Under the pieces are notes generated by a model. It did no database searches. It worked only from the letters and a program-made list of their open reading frames with translations, and was not told the DNA's origin. A stretch of DNA of 32,000 nucleotides, from NCBI GenBank assembly GCA_018712915.1, contig DVGC01000058.1, positions 21,091 to 53,090 of the forward strand, in the 5' to 3' direction. Position numbers and translations under genes: made by a program. Of the stretch, positions 666-10,932 are shown in pieces. The DNA is from Candidatus Copromonas faecavium (nom. illeg.). GTDB lineage: Bacteria; Bacillota; Clostridia; Lachnospirales; Lachnospiraceae. How positions within the stretch are numbered: the stretch's first letter is position 1; every line of letters begins with the position of its first letter.

Positions 666-2954
666 TTAGAAGCATTTGCTCCATCCGCAGTTTTTGCACA
701 GGTTGCAGCCGCCCTCAAATACCAATGGTTCTCCACATTCCGGGCAGACCATGGTCTGAGGCGCTCCCTTTCCCGCCTTCGCCTTCACCGCCTTTGGCCT
801 GGGCGCCTTCTGAACAGGCTCCTGTCCGTTTTTCTTTCTGGCAGCCAGTTCTTCCTGAACCTCATTATACATATCCAGGAGGGCATTTCCCACGGCCATG
901 GGGCAGCAGGAACCCCGGCTGGTATCTTCCCTGGTGGCACGGCGCACGGTATAGGACGGGCATGCGCCGGTGGAATTTAACTGGTCGATAATCGTATAAA
1001 TATCAATTCCCCCGCGGGCACTGATGGAAATCATCCGGGACAGGCCAATCATGAAATTATTGCAGCCGCCGGTGGAGCCTTTGCTCAAATAGGTTTCCAG
1101 AAGTGCTCCCGTGTATGGGTCAAAGAGAGCGATACAGTGGAGGCTTCCGCAGCCCGTAATCAGCTTCCGTTTCTTTCCGATGACATCGTCATTGACCTGG
1201 ATGATATCGCCTCTCTTTAATCCGTCACCGGCCACAGCCCCCTTCTGGCTCTTCTCCTCCTCCGGTGTTAAAATTCCCAGCCGCTTGCAGCCGTCCCGGA
1301 AAATCGTAATTCCCTTTAATCCCTTTTCATAGGCATACAGATAAAGGCTTTCCGTTTCTTCCACCGTAAACTGATTGGGCACATTGACCGTGGAACTGAT
1401 GGAAGCGTCAATATGCTGCTGCCAGGTGGACTGCATATTGATTCTCTGACGGTAATCCAGCGTCATGGCCGTCACAAAATAATCCGGCAGCATGGCATCA
1501 TCCGTCAGCTTATGCGCCTTCATATAGTTTTCCACAATCTTTGTATAAACCTTATAATATACGTCCCTGCCATGGAGGGATTCGGTCTTTCTCACATAAT
1601 AATTGGCAAATACCGGCTCAATGCCGCCGGAAATTCCCAGCATAGTGGACAGAGTTCCCGTCGGTGCAATGGTAAGAAGCTGAGAGTTTCGCAGACCGTA
1701 TTTCTTCACCAGCTCTTTTGTGGAAGCCGACGTATTGGCTTCAAAATACGGAGAAGCCATGATGGCCTCCACGCTGCATTTTGGAAAGGCTCCGTCCTCT
1801 TTGGCAAGAAGGGCAGATGCTGCGATGGCCATGTCCGCCATGGCAAATCCAATCCGGTCACAAAGCTCCAGAGACTCCGGTTCTCCGTAAGGGATTCCCA
1901 TCTGAATCAGCATGTCCGCCAGGCCCATGATTCCCAGGCCAATCTGCCTCCACTGCTTCACGCTTTCTCTCTGTTCCTCCAGCGGGTGAAGGGGCATGCC
2001 CTCGTCCAGCACCTCATTAAGCGCCCGGACGCACTCCCGCACACACTGCTTGAAGCTGTCAAAATCAAAGGCAGCATCCGGCGTAAACGGAGACGTCACA
2101 AACCCGGCCAAGTTAATGCTTCCCAAAAGGCAGCTGCCTCCGGCCGGAAGGGGCTCCTCCGCACAGGGATTCACTCCCGCATAAGAAAAGCCCGGAGTCT
2201 CGCTGAGCAGATTCCATCCGGTTACCCGATCCCAGAATAAGGCGCCCGGCTCTGCGTAATCCCAGTTGGTTTCCGCGATATGATGGAACAGTTCTTTTGC
2301 GCGAACCTCCCGTTCAATTTTCTCTCCTGTCGCTTCCCTGGTAAAATGCAGAAGGAAGGTTTCGTTGTTTTTCACCGCCTCCATGAATTTCCCGGAAATC
2401 CGGATGGAGATATTTGCCTTGGTCACCTTCTGCAGATCGGTCTTAATATCGATAAAATGTTCCACATCCGGATGAGAGCAGTCGATGGAAATCATCAGTG
2501 CCCCTCTCCGCCCGTTCTGTCCAATCAAATCCGTCACCAGCGAATACAGATCCATAAAGGAAACTGCGCCGGAAGTCTCCTTGGCCGCATTATTGATTCT
2601 CGCACCCCGGGGACTCAGCCTGGAGATGTCGATACCGCAGCCGCCCCCGTAGCTGTAGGTTCTGGCTAACTTCTTGGCACACTCAAAAATACTCTCAATT
2701 TCGTCCTCCGGAGGCTCGATGACGTAACAGTTGGACAATGTGATTTTCCGGCCCTCGTATTCCAGCCCCCGGTTGGCCAGAATCCGTCCTCCAAACAGGA
2801 ATTTCTTTTCCCGGACCAGACGGATAACCTCCTGATTTCCGGCACTGATACGGGAAAGCCACTGCTCAAAGGTTTCCCCGTTGTTGCAGTATTTTCTTTT
2901 CCAGATGTCGATTCCCAGCTGGTTCTCCTGCCCCAGCCACTCTTCAATTTCCAT
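666..2954 (-). CDS. nrdJ: Adenosylcobalamin-dependent (class II) ribonucleotide reductase
   Basis: The long ORF carries RNR catalytic-core strings (CNLGSINL-like GSCLLGSINL, NPCAEEPL) and a C-terminal CxxC...CxxC zinc ribbon (CPECGEPLVFEGGCNLCKNCGW). I place the start at ATG 2954 (MEIEEWLG) because GGAGGAAG lies 5 nt upstream. The ORF-track start at 3104 has no SD. Confidence 0.85.
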   Translation of the reverse strand: MEIEEWLGQENQLGIDIWKRKYCNNGETFEQWLSRISAGNQEVIRLVREKKFLFGGRILANRGLEYEGRKITLSNCYVIEPPEDEIESIFECAKKLARTYSYGGGCGIDISRLSPRGARINNAAKETSGAVSFMDLYSLVTDLIGQNGRRGALMISIDCSHPDVEHFIDIKTDLQKVTKANISIRISGKFMEAVKNNETFLLHFTREATGEKIEREVRAKELFHHIAETNWDYAEPGALFWDRVTGWNLLSETPGFSYAGVNPCAEEPLPAGGSCLLGSINLAGFVTSPFTPDAAFDFDSFKQCVRECVRALNEVLDEGMPLHPLEEQRESVKQWRQIGLGIMGLADMLIQMGIPYGEPESLELCDRIGFAMADMAIAASALLAKEDGAFPKCSVEAIMASPYFEANTSASTKELVKKYGLRNSQLLTIAPTGTLSTMLGISGGIEPVFANYYVRKTESLHGRDVYYKVYTKIVENYMKAHKLTDDAMLPDYFVTAMTLDYRQRINMQSTWQQHIDASISSTVNVPNQFTVEETESLYLYAYEKGLKGITIFRDGCKRLGILTPEEEKSQKGAVAGDGLKRGDIIQVNDDVIGKKRKLITGCGSLHCIALFDPYTGALLETYLSKGSTGGCNNFMIGLSRMISISARGGIDIYTIIDQLNSTGACPSYTVRRATREDTSRGSCCPMAVGNALLDMYNEVQEELAARKKNGQEPVQKAPRPKAVKAKAGKGAPQTMVCPECGEPLVFEGGCNLCKNCGWSKCF

Positions 2955-3077
2955 AATTCTTCCTCCTGATGTGCATGCTATATTTAAAGTGTTTTCATAA
3001 CTGCGAAAAATATGATCGATGCCGCCCATAACTTCTTGGATAATCTGGCTATCCCGCAGCATCATCTTCCATCTACT

Positions 3078-3417: not shown

Positions 3418-4620
3418 CTACTCCTGACTTAAAAACTCCGCAGCCACCATGGCCATTGCTCTCGTGCAGAGTTTAATATAGGACTCGTCCACCCGGAACT
3501 CAGGACTGTGCTTGGATGCATCCTCGCAAACACCGGCCCAGATCATGCAGGAGGGTGCCTTCTGGGAGTAAAATCCGAAATCCTCCGCCCCCAAAAGAGG
3601 CTTTTCGCCGGTTTCCAGCCAGTTCTCCGGCTTTTCCCACGTGAAATTTTCAAATAAGGTATCTTCATATTTCCGGAACGTGTCCGCCACAAAACCGGAA
3701 AATTTCTCATCATTATACACAGCCGCATAACCGGGATGCAGTTCACAGTCACAGCTTCCGCCCATCGCCTCTGCAATTCCCCTGGACAGGGTTTCAATCT
3801 TCCTGCACATCGTCTCCCTGGCTTCCTTCGACAGATTCCGCATCATCAGAGACATTTCCACCTTATCCGCAATAATATTGGCTGCGGAACCTCCATGAAT
3901 GACTCCAATATTCAGCGTGGAATGCTCCATCGGAGACATATCTCTCGATACCATGCCGTGCAGGGCCGTCACGATGGCCGCCGCGATATAAATAGCATCC
4001 GTTCCAGCCTCCGGTGTGGAGGAATGGGCCGCCTTTCCATGAACGGTCAGCGTATATCCATCCGAATAAGCCGTCAGATAACCTGTAGATACCGCCAGCT
4101 TTCCCTTTTTTCCATTTTCCACATGAAGGGCAAAGCAGGCGTCCGGTACCTCGTCCATCAATCCGGCTTCTATCATTTGCCGGCCTCCTCCGCCGTGCTC
4201 CTCTGCCGGCTGAAAGACCAGTTTTACTTTTCCTTTCCACTGATCCTTCGTGCGGTTTAAGATCTCTGCCACCGTCAGAAGGTTGGACGTATGAACGTCA
4301 TGCCCGCAGGCATGCATCACTCCGGGATTTTCAGAGGCATACGGAAGGCCCGTGTTTTCCTGAATTGGCAGGGCATCCATATCAGCCCTCAGCATCAGGA
4401 ATTTCCCCGGCTTCCCGCTGTCTATCGCAGCAATGATTCCCGGGCTGCAGGGGCTCTCCTCGTAAGGAATTCCCATCCGCTCCAATTCACTGCGAACCAG
4501 GCTGCTGGTTTTGTACTCATGAAACGCCAGCTCCGGATTTCTGTGAATCTGGTGGCGGATTTCCAGAAGATGAGGTTCCAGCTCATCTGATAAGGCACAA
4601 ATTCGTTCCATCAACTCCAT
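3418..4620 (-). CDS. M20-family amidohydrolase (N-acyl-amino acid amidohydrolase / hippurate hydrolase-like)
   Basis: 400 aa. N-terminal IRHQIHRNPELAFHEYKTS and the MHACGHDVH and PAEE(H)GGG motifs are typical of M20D peptidases. AGGAGGA SD 7 nt before ATG 4620. Confidence 0.8.
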   Translation of the reverse strand: MELMERICALSDELEPHLLEIRHQIHRNPELAFHEYKTSSLVRSELERMGIPYEESPCSPGIIAAIDSGKPGKFLMLRADMDALPIQENTGLPYASENPGVMHACGHDVHTSNLLTVAEILNRTKDQWKGKVKLVFQPAEEHGGGGRQMIEAGLMDEVPDACFALHVENGKKGKLAVSTGYLTAYSDGYTLTVHGKAAHSSTPEAGTDAIYIAAAIVTALHGMVSRDMSPMEHSTLNIGVIHGGSAANIIADKVEMSLMMRNLSKEARETMCRKIETLSRGIAEAMGGSCDCELHPGYAAVYNDEKFSGFVADTFRKYEDTLFENFTWEKPENWLETGEKPLLGAEDFGFYSQKAPSCMIWAGVCEDASKHSPEFRVDESYIKLCTRAMAMVAAEFLSQE

Positions 4621-4659
4621 AAAACATTCCTCCTTCTGCGGTCATCTGCTGCCCGCCTT

Positions 4660-5160
4660 TTATTTCCTGTTTTGCGTTTCCTGTCCTGCCCTCCATACAA
4701 GTCCTGCCGTAATCAAAGCTGCTCCGATACAGTCAATCATCACATCCGTAAACTGCCCGGAACGCCCCGGCACGAAAAGCTGATGAATTTCATCCGTACA
4801 GGCATAGAAAAATACCAGGAAAAAACCTGCCGTCAGCCATTTTCTTCCCCGAAGTCCCCACTGGTACAGCGCATACAGAATCGTAACATGAAAAACTGCG
4901 TATTCAGAAATATGAGCACATTTGCGCACCGGCATACTCATCGCTTCCAGCATTCCTGCATACTGCTCCGGTTCTCCGGAAAACAGCCCGATCCTGGTTC
5001 CAATCCACAAAAGGAGCCGACTGACAAAGTCGCTGGTTTCTGTGGACTGATCCGCCGGCTGGGCAGAAAAACAAAAGATGATAACTGCCATTGCAATCGC
5101 CGGAATCCAGGCCAGATACTTTTTATAACCGATTCCCATACAGGTATTATTTTGGTTCAT
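4660..5160 (-). CDS. VanZ-family membrane protein
   Basis: 166 aa with 4-5 TM segments. The FSAQPADQS...SDF and H..EY..F and DE.HQ.FVPGR strings are typical of the VanZ-like family. Confidence 0.7.
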   Translation of the reverse strand: MNQNNTCMGIGYKKYLAWIPAIAMAVIIFCFSAQPADQSTETSDFVSRLLLWIGTRIGLFSGEPEQYAGMLEAMSMPVRKCAHISEYAVFHVTILYALYQWGLRGRKWLTAGFFLVFFYACTDEIHQLFVPGRSGQFTDVMIDCIGAALITAGLVWRAGQETQNRK

Positions 5161-5300
5161 GCCGTCAAAATCCTTTCCTGATCAACTTTCAGGCTGCGGC
5201 ATGTACGAAAACCACAGCGCTCTGGATTGCGGGGCGCAGAGTATGCAAAAACCTCAGTTCTCCAAATCTCAGGCTGCGGCACAGACCGCACAGTTCCCTC

Positions 5301-6599
5301 CTACAGCGACAGGTTTCCTCTGGCTCTGGCACGCCGGTCCATAATGGAATGAATTACCGGTACCATAAAAATTGCCACAATTCCGCCTGCAAATCCGTTA
5401 TTATAAAGATTCATGCCACCATAAACAATTCCCACATTCAAGGCAACTGAAGAATGCAGATATCCGGCCAGCATTCCCACCAGTATGCCAAATTCTCCTG
5501 CAACAGGTGCCAGTGTAGTAGAAAACAGCAGAGCCAGCATGGGCGACGGCTCGTTGATATCCCAGTCCTTTGTCAGACTTGCAATCACCACCCCCATCAT
5601 GATTGGAGCAATATTCCTTAAATGCTTTCCGGTAGTGCTGAAACCAACGATAGTAAAAATTCCCCCGATGGTAGGGCCGTTCAGATCACCGCCTACAATC
5701 AGCACAAACAATGTGGCAAAGATACCATTGACGGCCATGTTAAAAACCGTGGCCGGTCCGCCCACTTCTTTCAGATAATCAGTGCCGGAAATTCCTGTGC
5801 TTCTTATAATCGTTTTATAGTTGATGAGAAGATTCTTTCCCCCCAGCAGCAGCGCTCCGGCTGCCATAATCAAAAACAGGACTGCAAGAACAATCAGCAT
5901 CTCCCGATCATGGCCCGTATCCCACAAAAGCCTGGACTCCGTTTCCATCCCAAAGGATTTCATAACCGAAACGATTACGGTGGCAATGATCCCGGAAGCA
6001 AATCCTACATTGTAAAGAGAGTATCCCTTATGAGCATAATGAACATGTGTGGACAATGGGGGAAGGACAAAGCCGATCATAATTCCAATCAGAATGCTGA
6101 CAAAAATCCGCACACCGTAAGGAAGCTCCGTCATGTACATAACCTGTGTAATGATCGGAGAAAGACTCGTTCCATAAAGTCCGATATAAATATAACGGGA
6201 TAAATGCATTTTATGATACTTGGAATAAAGATAAACCCCAAGAAGAATCGACCAGATATTAAGAAGATTCTTTCCAAATAAAGAAAATCCAAACATAAGA
6301 CAGCAGGATGTGATGGTATGTCCATCCATCTCCTTGCCCAGAGCGTAAATGATCCCCAGAGAACACAGCGTCAGAACACCGGCATTAATAAAAGCCGCTC
6401 CGATTCCGCCTACCACGAAATAGTCTGTAATCAGGAAGTCCGGCTCCCGTAAGAGCGTCATAAAACCAGGGAAGATTTCATCCAGCGGCTGAAGGAAAAA
6501 TCCGAGTACGATAAAATAAATCGGTATCAGTGCCAGAAGGCCAAACTGCTGCTTTCTTCCAAAGGTATGCGTTTTCCCCATATGTACATTCCTTTCCAT
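5301..6599 (-). CDS. Polytopic integral membrane protein (possibly DUF1576 family)
   Basis: 432 aa with at least 10 predicted TM helices. The family name is from memory only. The true start may be ATG 6581 (MGKTH), which has a GAAAGGA SD upstream. Confidence 0.5.
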   Translation of the reverse strand: MERNVHMGKTHTFGRKQQFGLLALIPIYFIVLGFFLQPLDEIFPGFMTLLREPDFLITDYFVVGGIGAAFINAGVLTLCSLGIIYALGKEMDGHTITSCCLMFGFSLFGKNLLNIWSILLGVYLYSKYHKMHLSRYIYIGLYGTSLSPIITQVMYMTELPYGVRIFVSILIGIMIGFVLPPLSTHVHYAHKGYSLYNVGFASGIIATVIVSVMKSFGMETESRLLWDTGHDREMLIVLAVLFLIMAAGALLLGGKNLLINYKTIIRSTGISGTDYLKEVGGPATVFNMAVNGIFATLFVLIVGGDLNGPTIGGIFTIVGFSTTGKHLRNIAPIMMGVVIASLTKDWDINEPSPMLALLFSTTLAPVAGEFGILVGMLAGYLHSSVALNVGIVYGGMNLYNNGFAGGIVAIFMVPVIHSIMDRRARARGNLSL

Positions 6600-6933
6600 G
6601 ATTTAATCTCTGTCTGTCATGAGCCGCATCCTCTGCTGGTTTTCACACGCGATTTGCCGCTCTGAATCACTACCTTTCAATTATACATGAAAAAGGCTAT
6701 CGTGTACAGCGTTTTTCTGAGAGCCCGGGCGGCATTTTCCAAAATATGACCACAGATAAACGACTGCCACGTCCTGTCCTCGGAGCAAAAACCGGCAGGT
6801 TCCGTATATGCAATAAGTTTATACCGGTCATCCTCCAGGGCAGCTGTTTTCACTGGCTGTCACTGCGGAAATTTTTTCGTTTTCGCCTGCAAGGCTAAGC
6901 ATATTTGCATACTGTCGTGAGGAAATGGGAAGA

Positions 6934-6962
6934 TTGTCGAAATAGGAGGGATGTGATATACT
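6934..6962 (+). promoter_or_regulatory. Putative promoter of the type I toxin mRNA (TTGTCG-17 nt-TGaTATACT, extended -10)
   Basis: -35 at 6934-6939, TG at 6954-6955, -10 TATACT at 6957-6962. This predicts a ~50-nt 5' UTR in which CCCCT (6976-6980) can pair with the AGGGG of the SD (6995-6999). Confidence 0.5.
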
Positions 6963-7014
6963 TCTTTTGTTGCCACCCCTATACCGGCAAGGAAAGGGGG
7001 GCTGACCTACGGAA

Positions 7015-7095
7015 ATGCTCATAACTTTTGCTCTTTCTGTCGTAGCAGGTGTGGTTTGCCACCTCATTTGCAAATGGCTGGACAGAAAGAGGTAG
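7015..7095 (+). CDS. Fst/PepA1-like type I toxin, 26 aa (MLITFALSVVAGVVCHLICKWLDRKR)
   Basis: Small ORF below the ORF-track cutoff. It is a single hydrophobic helix ending in WL-D-RKR, like Fst-family toxins (compare ...SGCAIAFFSYWLSRRNTK of S. aureus PepA1). A GGAAAGGGGGG SD lies upstream and an in-frame TGA lies 4 codons upstream. The locus has the matching antisense RNA and bidirectional terminator. Confidence 0.75.
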   Translation: MLITFALSVVAGVVCHLICKWLDRKR

Positions 7096-7142
7096 ACGGC
7101 AACCAGCCTAGGGCCTAAGCCACCCTGCAAAAACGGAATAGA

Positions 7143-7173
7143 AAACCCCAGAGGCTGCATCCTCTGGGGTTTT
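7143..7173. terminator. Bidirectional rho-independent terminator shared by the toxin mRNA and the antisense RNA
   Basis: AAAACCCCAGAGG-ctgcat-CCTCTGGGGTTTT: a 9-bp GC-rich stem flanked by an A-run and a T-run, so it can terminate on both strands. Confidence 0.8.
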
Positions 7174-7213
7174 TGTTGACCTTACGGCCAAGCTCATAAC
7201 TTTTTGCCTACCG
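7143..7213 (-). ncRNA. Putative antitoxin antisense RNA (~70 nt) of the Fst-like module
   Basis: It would be transcribed from the promoter at 7216-7244 toward the shared terminator. It contains GGCAAAAAGTTATGAGCTTGGCCGTAAGGTCAA, which is complementary to toxin mRNA 7002-7033. That stretch includes a perfect 13-nt match over the last base of the start codon through codon 5 (7017-7029). Confidence 0.65.
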
Positions 7214-7215
7214 GC

Positions 7216-7244
7216 ATTATAGCATATGCAGATTTTTTTTGCAA
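7216..7244 (-). promoter_or_regulatory. Near-consensus sigma-70-type promoter for the antisense RNA (TTGCAA-17 nt-TATAAT)
   Basis: On the minus strand the -35 TTGCAA is at 7239-7244 and the -10 TATAAT at 7216-7221, with exactly 17 nt between them. Confidence 0.7.
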
Positions 7245-7367
7245 GATACAGCAAAATTGGCCTCCTGGCATCGTATGATGATTTCTGCTCCTTCATTCCG
7301 GCAATCTCCCGTATCCATCGTCTATCCTTGCTGCTTTCTGTCCCGGCTGGTTCTTCTGCAGGCCCAG

Positions 7368-8318
7368 TTATCCCAACCGTTTCAAAACCTCCTCCATAAA
7401 AGGCATGGCGGGAATCGCTCCGCGCCGTTCTACGCAAAGAGAAGCCACTGCATTGGCAAAGCGGGCCGCCTCACAGGCCTCCTGCAAGCTCAGCTCCTCC
7501 GGCCGCTTCCCAAACTGGCAGATCTGATACAGAAAACCACCCCAGAAAGAATCTCCGGCCCCCGTTGTATCCACCACCTGGCTCTTATATCCGGGAACCA
7601 CGATTCCGCCTTCCCGGTTTGCCACATAGGCGCCTTTTGCCCCCAGAGTCACAACCACCAGCTTTACTCCCTGGCTGCAGAGGAAGTCAGCCGCCTGCTC
7701 CGGCTCCTCAAAATCTGTCAGAAGTCCCGTTTCCTCATCAGAAATCTTCATAATATCCACATAAGGAATCAGGCTTCTCATCTGCTCTTTAGCGTCCTCC
7801 TCGCTTCTCCAGAGAGAAGCACGGTAATTGGGATCATAGGAAATCAGACTTCCGTTTTCCCTGGCTGTCTGAACAGCATACATGGTCGTTCCTCTGGCCG
7901 GTTCGTCCGTCAGAGACAGCGAGCCCACATGGAAAATTTTCGTATGTTTCAGCACATCAGGGGAAAGCTCTTCCCTTGAAAGCTGTGTGTCCGCTCCCGG
8001 TTTCCTTGCGAAAGAAAAGCTCCGTTCTCCTTCCGGTGTCAGCGCCACAAAAGCAAGCGTCGTAAAGAAATTCGGATCCAGCAGGAAACCGCCTGTATGG
8101 ATCTTTTCCTTTATTAATGTTTCCTTCAGAAATCTTCCATGCATATCATCCCCGGCTTTTCCAAGGAACGCACAGGACGCTCCCAGTCTGGAGGCAGCCG
8201 TCAGTGCATTGGCCGGCGCACCGCCGGGATTCTGAGCAAACAGCTTCTGTCCGTCTCCATTTTCTCCCTGATAGGTAAAATCAATCAAAATTTCTCCAAG
8301 TGCTGTAATATCGTACAT
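7368..8318 (-). CDS. PfkB-family carbohydrate kinase, fructokinase-like
   Basis: 316 aa. N-terminal ALGEILIDF...NPGGAPANA and C-terminal DTTGAGDSF motifs of ribokinase/PfkB sugar kinases. AGGGGGG SD upstream. Confidence 0.8.
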   Translation of the reverse strand: MYDITALGEILIDFTYQGENGDGQKLFAQNPGGAPANALTAASRLGASCAFLGKAGDDMHGRFLKETLIKEKIHTGGFLLDPNFFTTLAFVALTPEGERSFSFARKPGADTQLSREELSPDVLKHTKIFHVGSLSLTDEPARGTTMYAVQTARENGSLISYDPNYRASLWRSEEDAKEQMRSLIPYVDIMKISDEETGLLTDFEEPEQAADFLCSQGVKLVVVTLGAKGAYVANREGGIVVPGYKSQVVDTTGAGDSFWGGFLYQICQFGKRPEELSLQEACEAARFANAVASLCVERRGAIPAMPFMEEVLKRLG

Positions 8319-8514
8319 CCAATTGCCCCCCTGTGGTTTTTATTGTTTTTCAATACACGCTTTTGTTATTGCAACGGCTGCGCCTTTTGTTTACAATAAT
8401 CAATCAGTTTCTTTGCAGACGTAAGACCTGCCCCTTCTTATAGTGGCTTCCAATTTTTATATACCGTTATTCATGCATTTCCGTCAAGCTATCCATTTCT
8501 CTCAAGCCCCTTCC

Positions 8515-9243
8515 CTACAGCAGCGGCACAATCCAATTCTCCCAGGCCCAGCTGACCGGCATTACAAGAGCCATGGCCGGAATCATATCTGCCGTGGGAA
8601 ATTCCCGGATTTTGGATATGCGAAAACCGGTAGCAATCAGAAGAAAGCCGCCGCAGGCCTTGAAATCGTCAATCATATCCGGAGTCGTCAGCGGATAAAT
8701 GATGCTGGATGCTGCAAAAATCACCAGAAAAATCAGCATTTGGGGAACAGCGATAAAAGACACCACCAGTCCCAGGTTAGACGCAAAAATAATGGCCGTA
8801 AAGAAATCCAGCACCGATTTGGAAATCATGATCGTATGATCGCCGCTGATGCCGGAATCCAGAGAACCGTAAATTCCCGTCCCGCTGGCGCAGAACAGAA
8901 CGATCACCGTTACCAGAACACTCATGTACTCCTCTCTTGAAAGGCCAGTAGGCTGATTTTTAAAAATCAGACTCACCGGTTTTTCCATCAGCATTCCGCC
9001 CCGGTGAATCCACTGTCCCAGATGGCAGGCCAGACCGATGGCGGTTCCCACCACGACGGAAAAAATCACTGCCGGCATGTTTTTCATTAAAACAATCGAA
9101 CTGACTCCCATTCCCATGGAGCAGACACCAAAAATCAAAGTCAGTTCATGTTTCATCCGAGCCGGCACCTTATGGCCCAACAAAGCTCCAATCGCTCCCC
9201 CGAGTGCCACCGACAACGCGTTGATAATAATTCCTGTTGGCAT
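8515..9243 (-). CDS. DUF554-family membrane protein (YqgA/YdfK-like)
   Basis: 242 aa, multi-TM. N-terminal GIIINALSVALGGAIGALLG is typical of DUF554. Confidence 0.65.
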   Translation of the reverse strand: MPTGIIINALSVALGGAIGALLGHKVPARMKHELTLIFGVCSMGMGVSSIVLMKNMPAVIFSVVVGTAIGLACHLGQWIHRGGMLMEKPVSLIFKNQPTGLSREEYMSVLVTVIVLFCASGTGIYGSLDSGISGDHTIMISKSVLDFFTAIIFASNLGLVVSFIAVPQMLIFLVIFAASSIIYPLTTPDMIDDFKACGGFLLIATGFRISKIREFPTADMIPAMALVMPVSWAWENWIVPLL

Positions 9244-9651
9244 ATTCAGTCCCCTTTCTGCTGTAGGTCCACCGTTTCATGCTTCTCCATGGCCTCCATG
9301 GAATCTGCATTCCTATTATTTGCCCGTCAGTTTCCTGTTATTTATGCTCCTTCCGTAGCGGGCAGCCTTTCACAGACTCATCTTTTCCCATTATATCAGA
9401 AGCGGCCGCTTCTTTCCACAGAATTTCCATCCGCCCCCCCTCAAAGCCAAAAATGAGATTTTAAATTCCACCTTCTCCCCTCAAAGTACCTGCGGAATTG
9501 CATATTTCAAATCAGCCGCAGAATAACCCCGCATTCAGTTTTTCCTGCCATACCCATCAGTAAAACTCATAAGTCTGTTTCATTTTCTCTCTGTTTTCTC
9601 CCGGGAAGCCATGCTATACTGGTATTACATACCAAAAAGGAGGATCCCAGC

Positions 9652-10932
9652 ATGCATGAACTGACCAAACTGATTTTTGATGATATGAAGCCCGCCCTAG
9701 GGGTAACAGAACCAGGAGCCATCGCATTCGCGGTTTCAACGGCAAAATCCCGGGTTCCCGGTGCTGTCCGCCAGATCTCTCTGCGGTTAAACAGCGGCAT
9801 GTATAAAAATGCATTTACCTGCGGAATTCCCGGCACCAGTCAGGTTGGAAACGAATATGCCGCGGCGTTAGGCGCCATCGCCGCAGACTCGAAAAAGGGT
9901 CTGGAATGTCTGGACGGCATCACCGAAGACCAGGTGCGCGAGGCCAGGCAGATGATCGCGGATGGAAAGGTCCGCGTATCCATGAGCGAAATTACCAGCA
10001 GAATTTTCATTGAAGCTGCTGTCACCACAGATACCGGTTCATCCTCGGTAACCATCCGGGATTCCCATACCAATATCGTAAAAATCGTTGAAAACGACCG
10101 CACCATCCTGGAAAAAGCAGACGAAGGAGAGCAGGAAAATGCCATGCCTCCTCTGATCCATCGTTATACGCTGGAGCAGCTTCTTTCCTACGTAAGGGAA
10201 GTCCCATTGGAAGAAATTCAGTTCATTCAGGCCGCTCATACCATGAATTATAAGCTGATGGAGGAGGGCCTGGAAAGTCCCAGAACCACCTTTTCCCGCT
10301 GTCTCCTGGATGAAAATGGGGGAAGCATCATTTCCGAAGATGAGCAGAAAACAGCCTCCCTTCTCTGCAGCGCAGCAATCGAAGCCAGGGTCATCGGTCT
10401 GTCCCGTCCTGCCATGAGCATTACCGGCTCCGGCGCACATGGAATCATTGCCACCATGCCCCTTTATGCCGCCTGTCAGGTCCGCGGGCATTCGGAAGAG
10501 CAGCTGCTAAGAGCCACCGCTTTAAGCTATTTAATCTGCATGTACATCAAAGAATACTCCGGCAGGCTGTCTGCTTTCTGCGGCTGTGCCATTGCGGCCG
10601 GAACAGGAATGGCCTGCGGCCTTACCTATCTGCGGGGCGGAATGGAAAAAGAAATGGAATACACCATCAATAACATGGCCAGCAGCATCACCGGAATGAT
10701 CTGTGACGGCGGAAATCAGGGATGCGTTATGAAAGGAGTCGTGGCTGTGGATGCGGCTTACCGCTCTGTGGATCTGGCCATGAAAGGCGTTCATATCGAT
10801 AAGGTTCATGGTGTCAATGGAAATACACCGGAGGAAACCATGCGGTATATGGGCCTGATTGCCTCTCCGGGCATGGTAGGAACGGAAAAAACCATTGTAG
10901 AAATCCTGGAACATAAATCCTCCGGACATTAA
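9652..10932 (+). CDS. L-cysteine desulfidase family protein (UPF0597/YhaM-like, serine dehydratase alpha-like)
   Basis: 426 aa. KPALG(V/C)TEP, HTNIV, TGSGAHGIIATMP and MICDGGNQGC strings parallel E. coli YhaM. AAAGGAGGA SD 7 nt before the ATG, and TGcTATACT upstream. Confidence 0.75.
   Translation: MHELTKLIFDDMKPALGVTEPGAIAFAVSTAKSRVPGAVRQISLRLNSGMYKNAFTCGIPGTSQVGNEYAAALGAIAADSKKGLECLDGITEDQVREARQMIADGKVRVSMSEITSRIFIEAAVTTDTGSSSVTIRDSHTNIVKIVENDRTILEKADEGEQENAMPPLIHRYTLEQLLSYVREVPLEEIQFIQAAHTMNYKLMEEGLESPRTTFSRCLLDENGGSIISEDEQKTASLLCSAAIEARVIGLSRPAMSITGSGAHGIIATMPLYAACQVRGHSEEQLLRATALSYLICMYIKEYSGRLSAFCGCAIAAGTGMACGLTYLRGGMEKEMEYTINNMASSITGMICDGGNQGCVMKGVVAVDAAYRSVDLAMKGVHIDKVHGVNGNTPEETMRYMGLIASPGMVGTEKTIVEILEHKSSGH

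Follow-up and report, generated by a model that had tools for sequence, protein, structure and literature searches.

Type I toxin-antitoxin modules are below the size range of gene finders. In Streptococcus pneumoniae, the genes fcsR and adcA flank Fst-A and Fst-B, of which Fst-B is toxic in Escherichia coli and has a 65- to 75-nt antisense RNA, and among the relatives considered here, toxicity is known only for this peptide. The pneumococcal RNA SpF66 (F66) maps between SP2168 and SP2169, which we take to be fcsR and adcA, respectively, and F66 appears to be the Fst-A/B locus because the flanking genes match. The peptide signature of the Fst/Ldr toxin superfamily includes, within the helix, the motif [P/D/S/T]xxxG(C) (Weaver 2020, PMC7472228). 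Fst-like sequences in Clostridium (Enterocloster) bolteae and C. asparagiforme were placed in the Ldr/Fst family by PSI-BLAST (Fozo et al. 2010); in the passages of that study cited here, no RNA architecture, distribution, or experiment is given for them.

Positions 6934 to 7244 of the window (the whole 32,000-nt stretch of DNA that was analyzed) are very probably a member of the par/Fst type I toxin-antitoxin family on the core chromosome of Candidatus Copromonas faecavium. The entire module was contained in the intergenic gap between two ordinary metabolic genes, with pfkB as a flanking gene, and it belonged to a large Fst/par branch, common among gut Lachnospiraceae and hardly ever annotated. 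An initial annotation had listed five parts of such a module, and all five were found where it had placed them. Each element of the proposed architecture (convergent promoters, a common bidirectional terminator, a small hydrophobic open reading frame [ORF], and a repeat of the initiation region) held and was kept in relatives, and the combination of ORF and repeat, whose lack of conservation had been named as evidence against the module, was clearly retained in related genomes. The demonstrated lines of support were the parts with this conservation, the ORF's coding signature, covarying helices, locus-specific coevolution of the repeats, and RNA homology to pneumococcal fst. The features are given below in window coordinates.

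6934-6962, plus strand: toxin-RNA promoter, with -35 TTGTCG (6934-6939), a 17-nt spacer, TG (6954-6955), and -10 at 6957-6962 (TGaTATACT)
6969-7180, plus strand: predicted mRNA of the toxin (RNA I equivalent), ~210 nt, beginning at the conserved GUUGCC and ending at the terminator
6969-7006, plus strand: 5' stem-loop, with GUUGCC and ACCCC paired with the G-rich Shine-Dalgarno run (6996-7001)
7002-7033, plus strand: direct-repeat copy 1, over the translation start; predicted antisense target
7009-7011, plus strand: canonical start position of the family, ACG in the window, 22 codons before the Trp
7015-7095, plus strand: toxin ORF, ATG start, 26 aa, MLITFALSVVAGVVCHLICKWLDRKR
7045-7071, plus strand: hairpin within the ORF, GCAGGUG.UGG ... 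CCA.CCUCAUUUGC
7076-7108, plus strand: hairpin around the stop codon, GGCUGG (7076-7081) paired with CCAGCC (7103-7108)
7108-7296, minus strand: HIR06260.1, "hypothetical protein" of 62 aa in the GenBank annotation, over the antitoxin gene and terminator
7137-7209, minus strand: predicted antitoxin RNA (RNA II equivalent), ~73 nt, with a 5' tail complementary to 7002-7033 and then the terminator hairpin
7142-7174, both strands: bidirectional intrinsic terminator common to both RNAs, with a 9-bp GC stem, a 6-nt loop, an A-run, and a T-run
7177-7208, plus strand: direct-repeat copy 2; the antisense RNA has its reverse complement as 5' tail
7216-7244, minus strand: antitoxin promoter, with TTGCAA (7244-7239), a 17-nt spacer, and TGcTATAAT (7224-7216)

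A promoter scan recovered the proposed extended -10 promoter at 6934-6962 with its TG extension and confirmed the near-consensus minus-strand promoter at 7216-7244, which matched 10 of 12 consensus positions plus TG and had its -10 at 7221-7216. Promoter-like hexamers alone were not above chance (3 in the scan versus 1.2 ± 1.2 expected); the calls are significant because the whole arrangement is conserved in hundreds of other loci. TGnTATAAT of the plus-strand promoter was kept across the family, and homology to relatives started at this promoter. TGcTATAAT of the antitoxin promoter was likewise kept and fell within a strongly conserved motif, GCCTACNGGCATTATAGCATA (7206-7226), which was present with at most one mismatch in 72 of 95 modules found via the peptide alone. 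The convergent promoters characteristic of a par(pAD1)-type locus were therefore present as predicted promoters, both with a TG extension, and by analogy with the characterized systems both would be transcribed at this locus.

The toxin mRNA, with a predicted transcription start at about G6969, agreed in size with the ~210 nt that had been proposed, and its predicted fold had an energy of -78.9 kcal/mol (z = -2.65). In this fold, 6969-6980 paired with 6996-7006; in the family consensus, the 5' GUUGCC paired in silico with GG.GGUG in 111 to 116 of ~119 sequences per pair. A Shine-Dalgarno-sequestering 5' stem-loop, as in par(pAD1), was thus seen in both the predicted fold and the consensus. Compensatory changes across the family were found in four RNA helices: the 5' stem-loop, where the inner GCAA-loop hairpin covaried (UA 38, CG 24, UG 18); the ORF hairpin (for example, UA 40/AU 30, AU 49/GC 33, and GC 63/AU 22); the stop-codon hairpin (AU 55/GC 41; UG 62/CG 40/UA 14), which is the counterpart of one helix of the SpF66 model; and the terminator. 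RNAalifold on the full-length MAFFT alignment gave the ORF hairpin and terminator only, and the other helices came from region-by-region alignments. No consensus helix was found for segment 7108-7135 in the family alignments. Hand inspection of the same segment suggested a conserved YUAAGCC loop on a variable stem.

The GC-rich hairpin with A- and T-runs that had been described at 7143-7173 was present, and its helix covaried in the family. The stem consisted of CCCCAGAGG (7146-7154) and CCTCTGGGG (7161-7169) around the loop CTGCAT, flanked by the A-run (7142-7145) and the T-run (7170-7174); because these runs pair with each other, the arms (7142-7157 and 7158-7173) extended to 16 nt and were 94% complementary. 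Perfect terminator hairpins were found in 111 of 138 modules, with compensatory changes. A terminator scanner called no terminator; the T tail that it needs is probably taken up by the A/T-extended stem. The RNA predicted to end at this hairpin on the minus strand, at ~73 nt, was close to the ~70-nt antisense RNA originally proposed, and its predicted fold had an energy of -30.1 kcal/mol (z = -3.91). Approximately 18 loci elsewhere lacked a toxin ORF and contained the antitoxin half alone (terminator, tail, and promoter). Antitoxin-only units occurred near tRNA genes.

The direct repeat reported at 7002-7033 and 7177-7208 was found and had the DRa/DRb organization of par-type loci. Copy 1 was split into DRa (~7003-7013) and DRb (~7017-7033) with a 3- to 4-nt mismatch bubble between them, and the gapped alignment of the two repeats covered 28 nt. 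The repeat had been said to contain 13 perfect nucleotides across the start codon; a 13-nt block was present (7017-7029), but its first nucleotide is the G of the ATG, and the A and T are in the mismatch bubble. Pairing of the antisense RNA with the toxin start was supported by computation, with a predicted duplex energy of -37.7 kcal/mol at 7002-7033 compared to -21.1 ± 3.2 kcal/mol for shuffled tails, and within the full 32 kb of the window, 7002-7033 was the antisense RNA's best non-self target. The cognate repeat copy ranked first in 73 of 76 nonredundant modules, and repeat scores were higher within a locus than across loci (19.3 versus 8.8; 19.5 versus 9.6 in the peptide-ascertained set). 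As judged from these sequence comparisons, the two direct repeats coevolve within each locus.

The mechanism proposed for this module is already known. The plus-strand promoter would give rise to a structured mRNA of ~210 nt for a 26-aa membrane peptide, and the 5' stem-loop of this mRNA would mask the Shine-Dalgarno sequence. The strong convergent promoter would produce the ~73-nt antisense RNA ending at the common bidirectional terminator. First contact between the two RNAs would be made via the complementary terminator loops, after which the antisense 5' tail would pair with 7002-7033 over the toxin start and block translation; this order of pairing is presumed to be that of the characterized family. 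The two RNAs would also differ in stability, as in that family, and upon loss of the antisense RNA, the peptide would be made and the membrane damaged. Toxicity of the 26-aa peptide is likewise expected by analogy.

The proposed 26-aa hydrophobic ORF, with W-L-D and charged residues at its end, was present at 7015-7095 and in the family, whose peptides ranged from 27 to 34 aa. Residues 2 to 19 (LITFALSVVAGVVCHLIC) were hydrophobic, consistent with a very small single-helix peptide, and the helix carried an SxxxG motif (S8-G12) and was followed by W21 and a basic tail (L-D-R-K-R after the Trp). Rfam lists SpF66 merely as a Streptococcus sRNA, and the plus-strand RNA was highly structured, with covarying helices of which one lies within the ORF; a noncoding regulatory sRNA of the SpF66 type, in which the small ORF is incidental, would have these properties. 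This interpretation is very improbable, because 120 of the 121 diverse sequences kept the frame open, with the other two frames mostly closed (in-frame stops in 1 of 121 versus 115 and 36), and because second codon positions varied least (entropies by codon position, 0.96, 0.48, and 1.03). K-W-L-D was essentially invariant, with K-W found in 121 of 121 sequences. Also contrary to a noncoding function, the SpF66 consensus encodes a homologous peptide, and the pneumococcal peptide is toxic. The small ORF, on this comparative sequence evidence, evolves as a coding sequence across the family.

The start codon was less regular than the reading frame. The canonical position of the family, where ATG (45 sequences), TTG (21), and GTG (20) were found, was occupied in the window by ACG and preceded by an in-frame TGA (7003-7005), and translation would have to begin at ATG 7015. 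This ATG is two codons downstream, is not the usual start codon of the family, and sits 13 nt from the G-run of the Shine-Dalgarno sequence, a poor spacing. The nearest relatives among the matches listed (L108, L082, and L034) had no ATG, GTG, or TTG start whatsoever; L108 and L082 had ATA at the canonical position, which L034 has lost by deletion. A relative with a canonical start encodes, for example, MEFIISFIVAVAAGVVCHYIIKWLDGDK. This sub-branch may make little or no toxin. The irregular starts and the 13-nt spacing are what would be expected of an attenuated or decaying copy, in which the toxin is barely or not translated and the RNA pair persists, for example, as an antitoxin donor or a relic, and the ~18 antitoxin-only loci indicate that toxin loss with retention of the antitoxin does occur in the family. 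Such decay is a possibility but was considered unlikely, since the ORF had no frameshift or stop in four sub-branch members at DNA identities of just 80 to 83%, substitutions among the four were conservative, the cassette was nearly invariant across strains of the species, complementarity of the repeat to the toxin start was kept, and weak or non-ATG starts (TTG and GTG, as counted above) were common in the family.

The module had been described as unlisted, which was correct for the toxin module itself but not for the gap, where GenBank has HIR06260.1 on the minus strand. This call is an internal-start version of the minus-strand ORF and is probably spurious. That HIR06260.1 is the real gene of the gap, served by the promoters and repeats, is extremely unlikely: its ATG was outside the conserved cassette, its frame would run through the terminator hairpin, the strong minus-strand promoter sits within the ORF, and spacer lengths across the region showed no preference for multiples of 3 (52/36/39). 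In its favor, the ORF is annotated in the metagenome-assembled genome deposited in GenBank, gene finders also call it in some strains, and an open minus-strand frame over this stretch was frequent in the family; against it, the called ORF had no Pfam match on record. The toxin-antitoxin reading of the gap was retained.

Homologues of the module were collected by degenerate DNA patterns, and the window's own species was not among the genome matches listed. Searches with the antitoxin-promoter motif identified the ~300-bp cassette (~6951-7260) in at least 119 loci of species-representative genomes, mostly Lachnospiraceae. The motif was also found in 70 viral contigs, at least 120 viral or prophage contigs matched the peptide-only pattern, and the cassette was present on small plasmids of Mediterraneibacter gnavus and Waltera. 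One cultivable carrier is M. gnavus NBRC 114413, with plasmid NZ_CP084015.1, and an M. gnavus plasmid bearing the cassette is 6.9 kb in size. A blastn search of the annotated phage collection gave no match. Homology was confined to ~6951-7260, which indicates a discrete cassette found in unrelated contexts. Among strains of the window's species, the cassette was nearly invariant, and no empty site was seen among the strain variants, all of which carried it.

For the plasmid and prophage copies, stabilization of the element is the obvious role. A broader proposal, that the mobilome of gut Lachnospiraceae has KWLD cassettes as its main type I toxin-antitoxin system and that chromosomal copies with crippled starts, together with antitoxin-only copies, provide anti-addiction immunity, is speculative and rather doubtful. 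If it were true, the antisense RNA of such copies would neutralize related cassettes on incoming plasmids or phages, and KWLD cassettes would be spread over prophages, small plasmids, and chromosomes while invisible to current annotation. The motif GCCTACNGGCATTATAGCATA adjoining a KWLD peptide is a simple DNA signature that flags hundreds of unannotated modules in Lachnospiraceae, prophages, and small plasmids and could improve the annotation of gut commensals. The cassettes are also candidate plasmid-stabilization or counterselection parts for genetically difficult Lachnospiraceae, and the >70 coevolved pairs of toxin start and antisense RNA constitute a natural data set for RNA-RNA specificity.

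Searches with peptide profiles gave scores below the cutoffs. Against the Pfam Fst_toxin model (PF13955), the comparison suggested in the initial annotation, the window peptide scored 14.3 bits (cutoff, 36; E = 0.041), and against NCBIfam NF033608 it scored 13.1 bits (cutoff, 26; E = 0.065); at E ≤ 1, 7 and 9 of 45 family members matched these models, respectively. Fst and Ldr were 2 of only 4 Pfam families reported for the window peptide. A comparison of the family profile with PDB sequences returned unrelated transmembrane segments at E > 1 and neither Fst nor PepA1. The window peptide matched the published Fst/Ldr signature, including the Trp region and S8-V-V-A-G12 within the helix, with its Cys at G+3 rather than G+1, and the register of the motif was in line with the P-xxx-G of PepA1 and Fst. 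The first position of xxxG in the family was A in 67, S in 32, and T in 19 of 121 sequences, and hence only 51 of 121 strictly fit [P/D/S/T]xxxG.

At the RNA level, the full-length Rfam model RF02442 (SpF66_sRNA) covered 6957-7181 with 39.8 bits (E = 8.7e-8). This score is 2.2 bits short of the gathering score of 42 bits, and the window was absent from the gathering-threshold scan; two relatives, L029 (46.6 bits) and L108 (43.7 bits; module 83% identical), passed the cutoff. The SpF66 consensus encodes MSLILELVLTIIADVIAGIILYFVCKWLDGKE, a peptide ending in KWLDGKE.

Compared to described systems of Clostridia, the locus resembled the type I systems of Clostridioides difficile (NF047374) in having a small hydrophobic toxin and an antisense RNA; those of C. 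difficile are often in prophages. Of 45 family members, 13 gave subthreshold matches to the NF047374 model, the best of them at E = 3.5e-4. Homology to NF047374 was unsupported: the window peptide scored 13 bits against a cutoff of 60, and the model, with 51 positions, is approximately twice as long. The Fst-like sequences of Fozo et al. (2010) have Lachnospiraceae hosts, as does the window locus, and Enterocloster genomes carry the window-type cassette; those sequences therefore probably belong to the same branch.

SprA1/SprA1AS of Staphylococcus aureus shares a peptide register with the window (PepA1/window, P10/S8, G14/G12, W23/W21, and L24/L22, followed by a basic tail), and SprA1AS acts at the translation start via a part not overlapping the toxin gene, as predicted for the window antisense RNA. 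No nucleotide-level homology to SprA1 was detected, and the hhalign probability for the two peptides was just 56%. The par locus of Enterococcus faecalis pAD1 has convergent promoters, a common bidirectional terminator, RNAs of sizes similar to those predicted in the window, DRa and DRb repeats through which RNA II is complementary to the site where toxin translation starts, and a 5' stem-loop masking the Shine-Dalgarno sequence, as predicted in the window. It differs in being located on a plasmid, whereas the window copy is chromosomal, and its peptide was weakly similar (hhalign probability, 39%), with Val at the family Trp position and PxxxG instead of SxxxG. A YUNR U-turn motif was absent from the window terminator loop CUGCAU (7155-7160), unlike that of pAD1 par; not all par homologues carry this motif (PMC7472228).

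The likeness to par(pAD1) and PepA1 in the initial annotation was thus borne out for the par-type architecture, but the closest characterized relative was pneumococcal Fst-A/B (F66/srn502 and F67/srn503; SpF66) rather than PepA1 or pAD1 Fst. In the pneumococcus, a host of the Bacilli, the loci are arranged in tandem and encode a 32-aa peptide with DxxxG, whereas the window locus is single, in a host of the Clostridia, and encodes 26 aa with SxxxG. Both have a chromosomal, intergenic location, and the pneumococcal antisense RNA comes from the 3' side, as predicted for the window. The toxin mRNA matched the SpF66 model, including the stop-codon hairpin and terminator, and the two peptides had a common xxxG ... 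CKWLD core.

A gap of 768 nt separates a DUF1576 membrane-protein gene and a PfkB sugar-kinase gene, both on the minus strand, and the initial annotation had placed in it a complete type I toxin-antitoxin module of the par(pAD1)/Fst type. The promoters on the two strands, the 26-aa ORF, the A- and T-flanked GC-rich hairpin, and the direct repeat that it described were all recovered, as follows.

5301-6599, minus strand, DUF1576 membrane-protein gene
6934-6962, plus strand, toxin promoter TTGTCG-17-TGaTATACT (promoter scan)
7002-7033 and 7177-7208, direct repeat
7015-7095, plus strand, toxin ORF of 26 codons, product MLITFALSVVAGVVCHLICKWLDRKR
7108-7296, minus strand, HIR06260.1 (locus tag IAB28_09915), 62-aa "hypothetical protein" (GenBank)
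7146-7169, GC-rich hairpin with an A-run and a T-run on its flanks (inverted-repeat search)
7244-7216, minus strand, near-consensus antitoxin promoter TTGCAA-17-TGcTATAAT (promoter scan)
7368-8318, minus strand, PfkB sugar-kinase gene

No terminator was reported by the terminator scanner at the 7146-7169 hairpin, probably because an A/T extension of the stem consumes the T tail that the scanner requires. Promoter-like hexamers (3 seen versus 1.2 expected), taken alone, were not more numerous than chance, and the case therefore depends on comparative evidence.

Homologues were sought with degenerate back-translated DNA patterns of the peptide. The first pattern retrieved genuine relatives in viral contigs, with the same layout as the window cassette and a common conserved stretch around the minus-strand -10, GCCTACNGGCATTATAGCATA. 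This motif was found in 70 viral contigs; in species-representative genomes it marked at least 119 loci. Among the genome matches listed, nearly all were Lachnospiraceae (including Blautia, Dorea, Enterocloster, Roseburia, Acetatifactor, Lachnospira, and genomes labelled "Ruminococcus" or "Eubacterium"), with a few Holdemanella or Oscillospiraceae. A peptide-only pattern, run to counter the bias from collecting loci by promoter motif, matched at least 120 viral contigs, and the minus-strand motif recurred with at most one mismatch, at a fixed distance, in 72 of the 95 unique modules from the peptide-only matches listed. With window positions 4000-10000 as the blastn query, homology to the collected loci was confined to about 6951-7260; in a MAFFT alignment, conservation ran from the plus-strand -10 element to the minus-strand -35 element. 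These comparisons delimit the unit as a discrete cassette of ~300 bp in unrelated contexts. Conservation of the 21-nt GCCTACNGGCATTATAGCATA stretch (window 7206-7226) far exceeded the needs of a promoter alone, and its TAC-GGCA portion resembled the toxin 5' UTR, TACCGGCA, at 6983-6990.

The cassette was also present, unannotated, on small plasmids of Lachnospiraceae, among them one of 6.9 kb in Mediterraneibacter gnavus, encoding a MobQ relaxase and Rep, and one of 5.6 kb in Waltera intestinalis. Beyond this family, a 224-kb Clostridium perfringens plasmid (NZ_CP119189.1, 50799-50997) gave a partial match covering 66% of the query. Tandem cassettes 0.5 to 1.5 kb apart occurred in some genomes or contigs, as do Fst-A and Fst-B in Streptococcus pneumoniae, and several genomes, such as Otoolea muris and Ruminococcus sp. 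AM22-13, had copies on more than one contig. Locus L227 carried a complete module followed by a second antitoxin-like unit, downstream of 2700. About 18 loci consisted of the antitoxin half alone (terminator hairpin, ~35-nt tail often with CATGGA, and conserved minus-strand promoter, without a toxin ORF). Such units could represent orphan antitoxins or what deletions have left behind. tRNA genes were found in 4 of 17 such loci checked; those for Pro (L103), Thr (L136), and Gly (L104) lay a few hundred bases from the unit.

L206, 3301-3553 of NZ_CP084015.1, plasmid cassette in an unannotated gap
L207, 4477-4735 of LC817946.1, plasmid cassette in an unannotated gap
L133, 5382 and 6782, tandem cassettes
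L087, about 1250-1560 and 2735-3040, tandem cassettes
L221, 162 and 684, tandem cassettes
L103, about 5690-5800, antitoxin-only unit
L136, about 3470-3600, antitoxin-only unit
L104, about 4700-4815, antitoxin-only unit (others in L149 and L158)

K-W-[L/F] lay at the core of a small ORF in 138 of 165 unique modules among the matches listed; its common form was M-E-x-x-x-S-F-x-V-[A/S/T]-V-x-A-G-V-x-C-H-[Y/L]-I-x-K-W-L-D and then a charged tail. Across 121 distinct sequences, entropy at codon positions 1, 2, and 3 was 0.96, 0.48, and 1.03 (23 codons), the K and W of KWLD were invariant, and stops interrupted the toxin frame in 1 sequence versus 115 and 36 in the other two frames. This signature across relatives identifies the small ORF as a coding sequence. 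The usual family start lies 22 codons upstream of the Trp, is followed by Glu or Asp, and was ATG in 45, TTG in 21, and GTG in 20 modules. In the window, the codon at this position is ACG (7009-7011), shortly after an in-frame TGA, and the ORF must start at the ATG at 7015, with 13 nt between it and the G-run. In L108 (~4685-4907), L082, and L034, the modules nearest to the window cassette among the matches listed, the canonical start is replaced by ATA or deleted and no ATG, GTG, or TTG start is present; the ORFs are otherwise intact. The window toxin may therefore be weakly translated or attenuated; however, the reading frame is intact in all four members of the sub-branch, and attenuation is considered unlikely. 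Such attenuation is compatible with the main explanation, an Fst-type module.

The predicted toxin mRNA (~6969-7178; fold, -78.9 kcal/mol; z = -2.65) and antisense RNA (~7209-7137; fold, -30.1 kcal/mol; z = -3.91) had ends derived from the -10 positions. Covariation, assessed on region-wise alignments, revealed compensatory base changes in four helices: the terminator, a hairpin within the ORF, another around the stop codon, and a 5' stem-loop in which the Shine-Dalgarno run is paired to the 5' end. The proposed complementarity of the antisense RNA to the toxin initiation region was borne out by a predicted duplex of -37.7 kcal/mol between its 5' tail and 7002-7033 (-21.1 ± 3.2 kcal/mol for 500 shuffled tails), the best target of the tail on both strands of the whole window, its own template excepted. 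The repeat was highly divergent between loci and matched within each locus. In 73 of 76 non-redundant modules, the start-region copy aligned best with the downstream copy of its own locus (mean local alignment score, 19.3 same locus versus 8.8 cross-locus; 19.5 versus 9.6 in the peptide-ascertained set), and the ORF-plus-repeat architecture is conserved in relatives. Gene conversion between both copies could contribute to this matching; an antisense regulator nonetheless needs complementarity of the kind maintained here.

HIR06260.1 overlaps the antitoxin promoter, antisense RNA, and terminator. It is probably spurious, since its start lies outside the conserved cassette and its frame is not conserved, with no preference for multiple-of-3 lengths in this region among the relatives compared. 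The flanking proteins were identical to HIR06261.1 and HIR06259.1 (the latter differing in called start) of Candidatus Copromonas faecavium, Lachnospiraceae. The window is core chromosome, encoding ribonucleotide reductase, methionyl-tRNA synthetase, KsgA, phosphofructokinase, DAP dehydrogenase, and MATE transporters, and no integrase or phage families were matched among the scanned window proteins. Seven strain-level contigs carried the cassette in identical or near-identical form. Between the window and contigs L208 to L211, position 7002, just 3' of the Shine-Dalgarno G-run, was C, T, or G (G restores the family GGTG); position 7058 was G or A (Cys15 to Tyr); a substitution at 7235 fell in the antitoxin promoter spacer; and an indel and one more substitution lay just outside the cassette. 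Elsewhere, between the serine dehydratase and DUF554 genes, gene callers predicted a non-hydrophobic 30-aa ORF, MEILWKEAAASDIMGKDESVKGCPLRKEHK, at ~9338-9430 on the minus strand (L002, 1889-1981).

No published account of how this Fst branch is built, how abundant it is, or where it occurs was found in the literature searched; the locus is of some further use as a starting point into a large, unannotated group of par/Fst modules. Scores of the window peptide were below threshold for peptide HMMs, including the Pfam Fst_toxin HMM proposed as a check, and a PDB sequence search returned no relatives; assignment to the par/Fst kind is therefore supported by architecture, RNA homology, and peptide signature, in agreement with the initial reading. 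The U-turn motif of par-type loci was not found at the window locus. The peptide has the features of the Fst/Ldr signature (PMC7472228), namely, a hydrophobic helix, SxxxG (S8-G12), and a Trp preceding the charged tail, and it shared motif register with PepA1 and Fst in profile alignments. In six aligned repeat pairs, a short stretch of mismatches or gaps just 3' of the start codon interrupted each, and the repeat therefore consists of two half-repeats, like the DRa/DRb pair of pAD1 par. The window plus-strand RNA matched the whole Rfam model RF02442 (SpF66_sRNA; E = 8.7e-8) at 39.8 bits, below the gathering score of 42 bits; the curated threshold was passed by L029 (46.6 bits) and L108 (43.7 bits), the latter being the closest module among the matches listed (83% identity). 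The SpF66 consensus translates as MSLILELVLTIIADVIAGIILYFVCKWLDGKE. F66 is a 239-nt RNA of S. pneumoniae TIGR4 located between SP2168 and SP2169, which we take to be fcsR and adcA; for its neighbor, F67, the annotation is a toxin locus of the Fst family. Fozo et al. located the tandem homologues Fst-A and Fst-B between fcsR and adcA, demonstrated toxicity of Fst-B in E. coli, and detected an antisense RNA of 65 to 75 nt.
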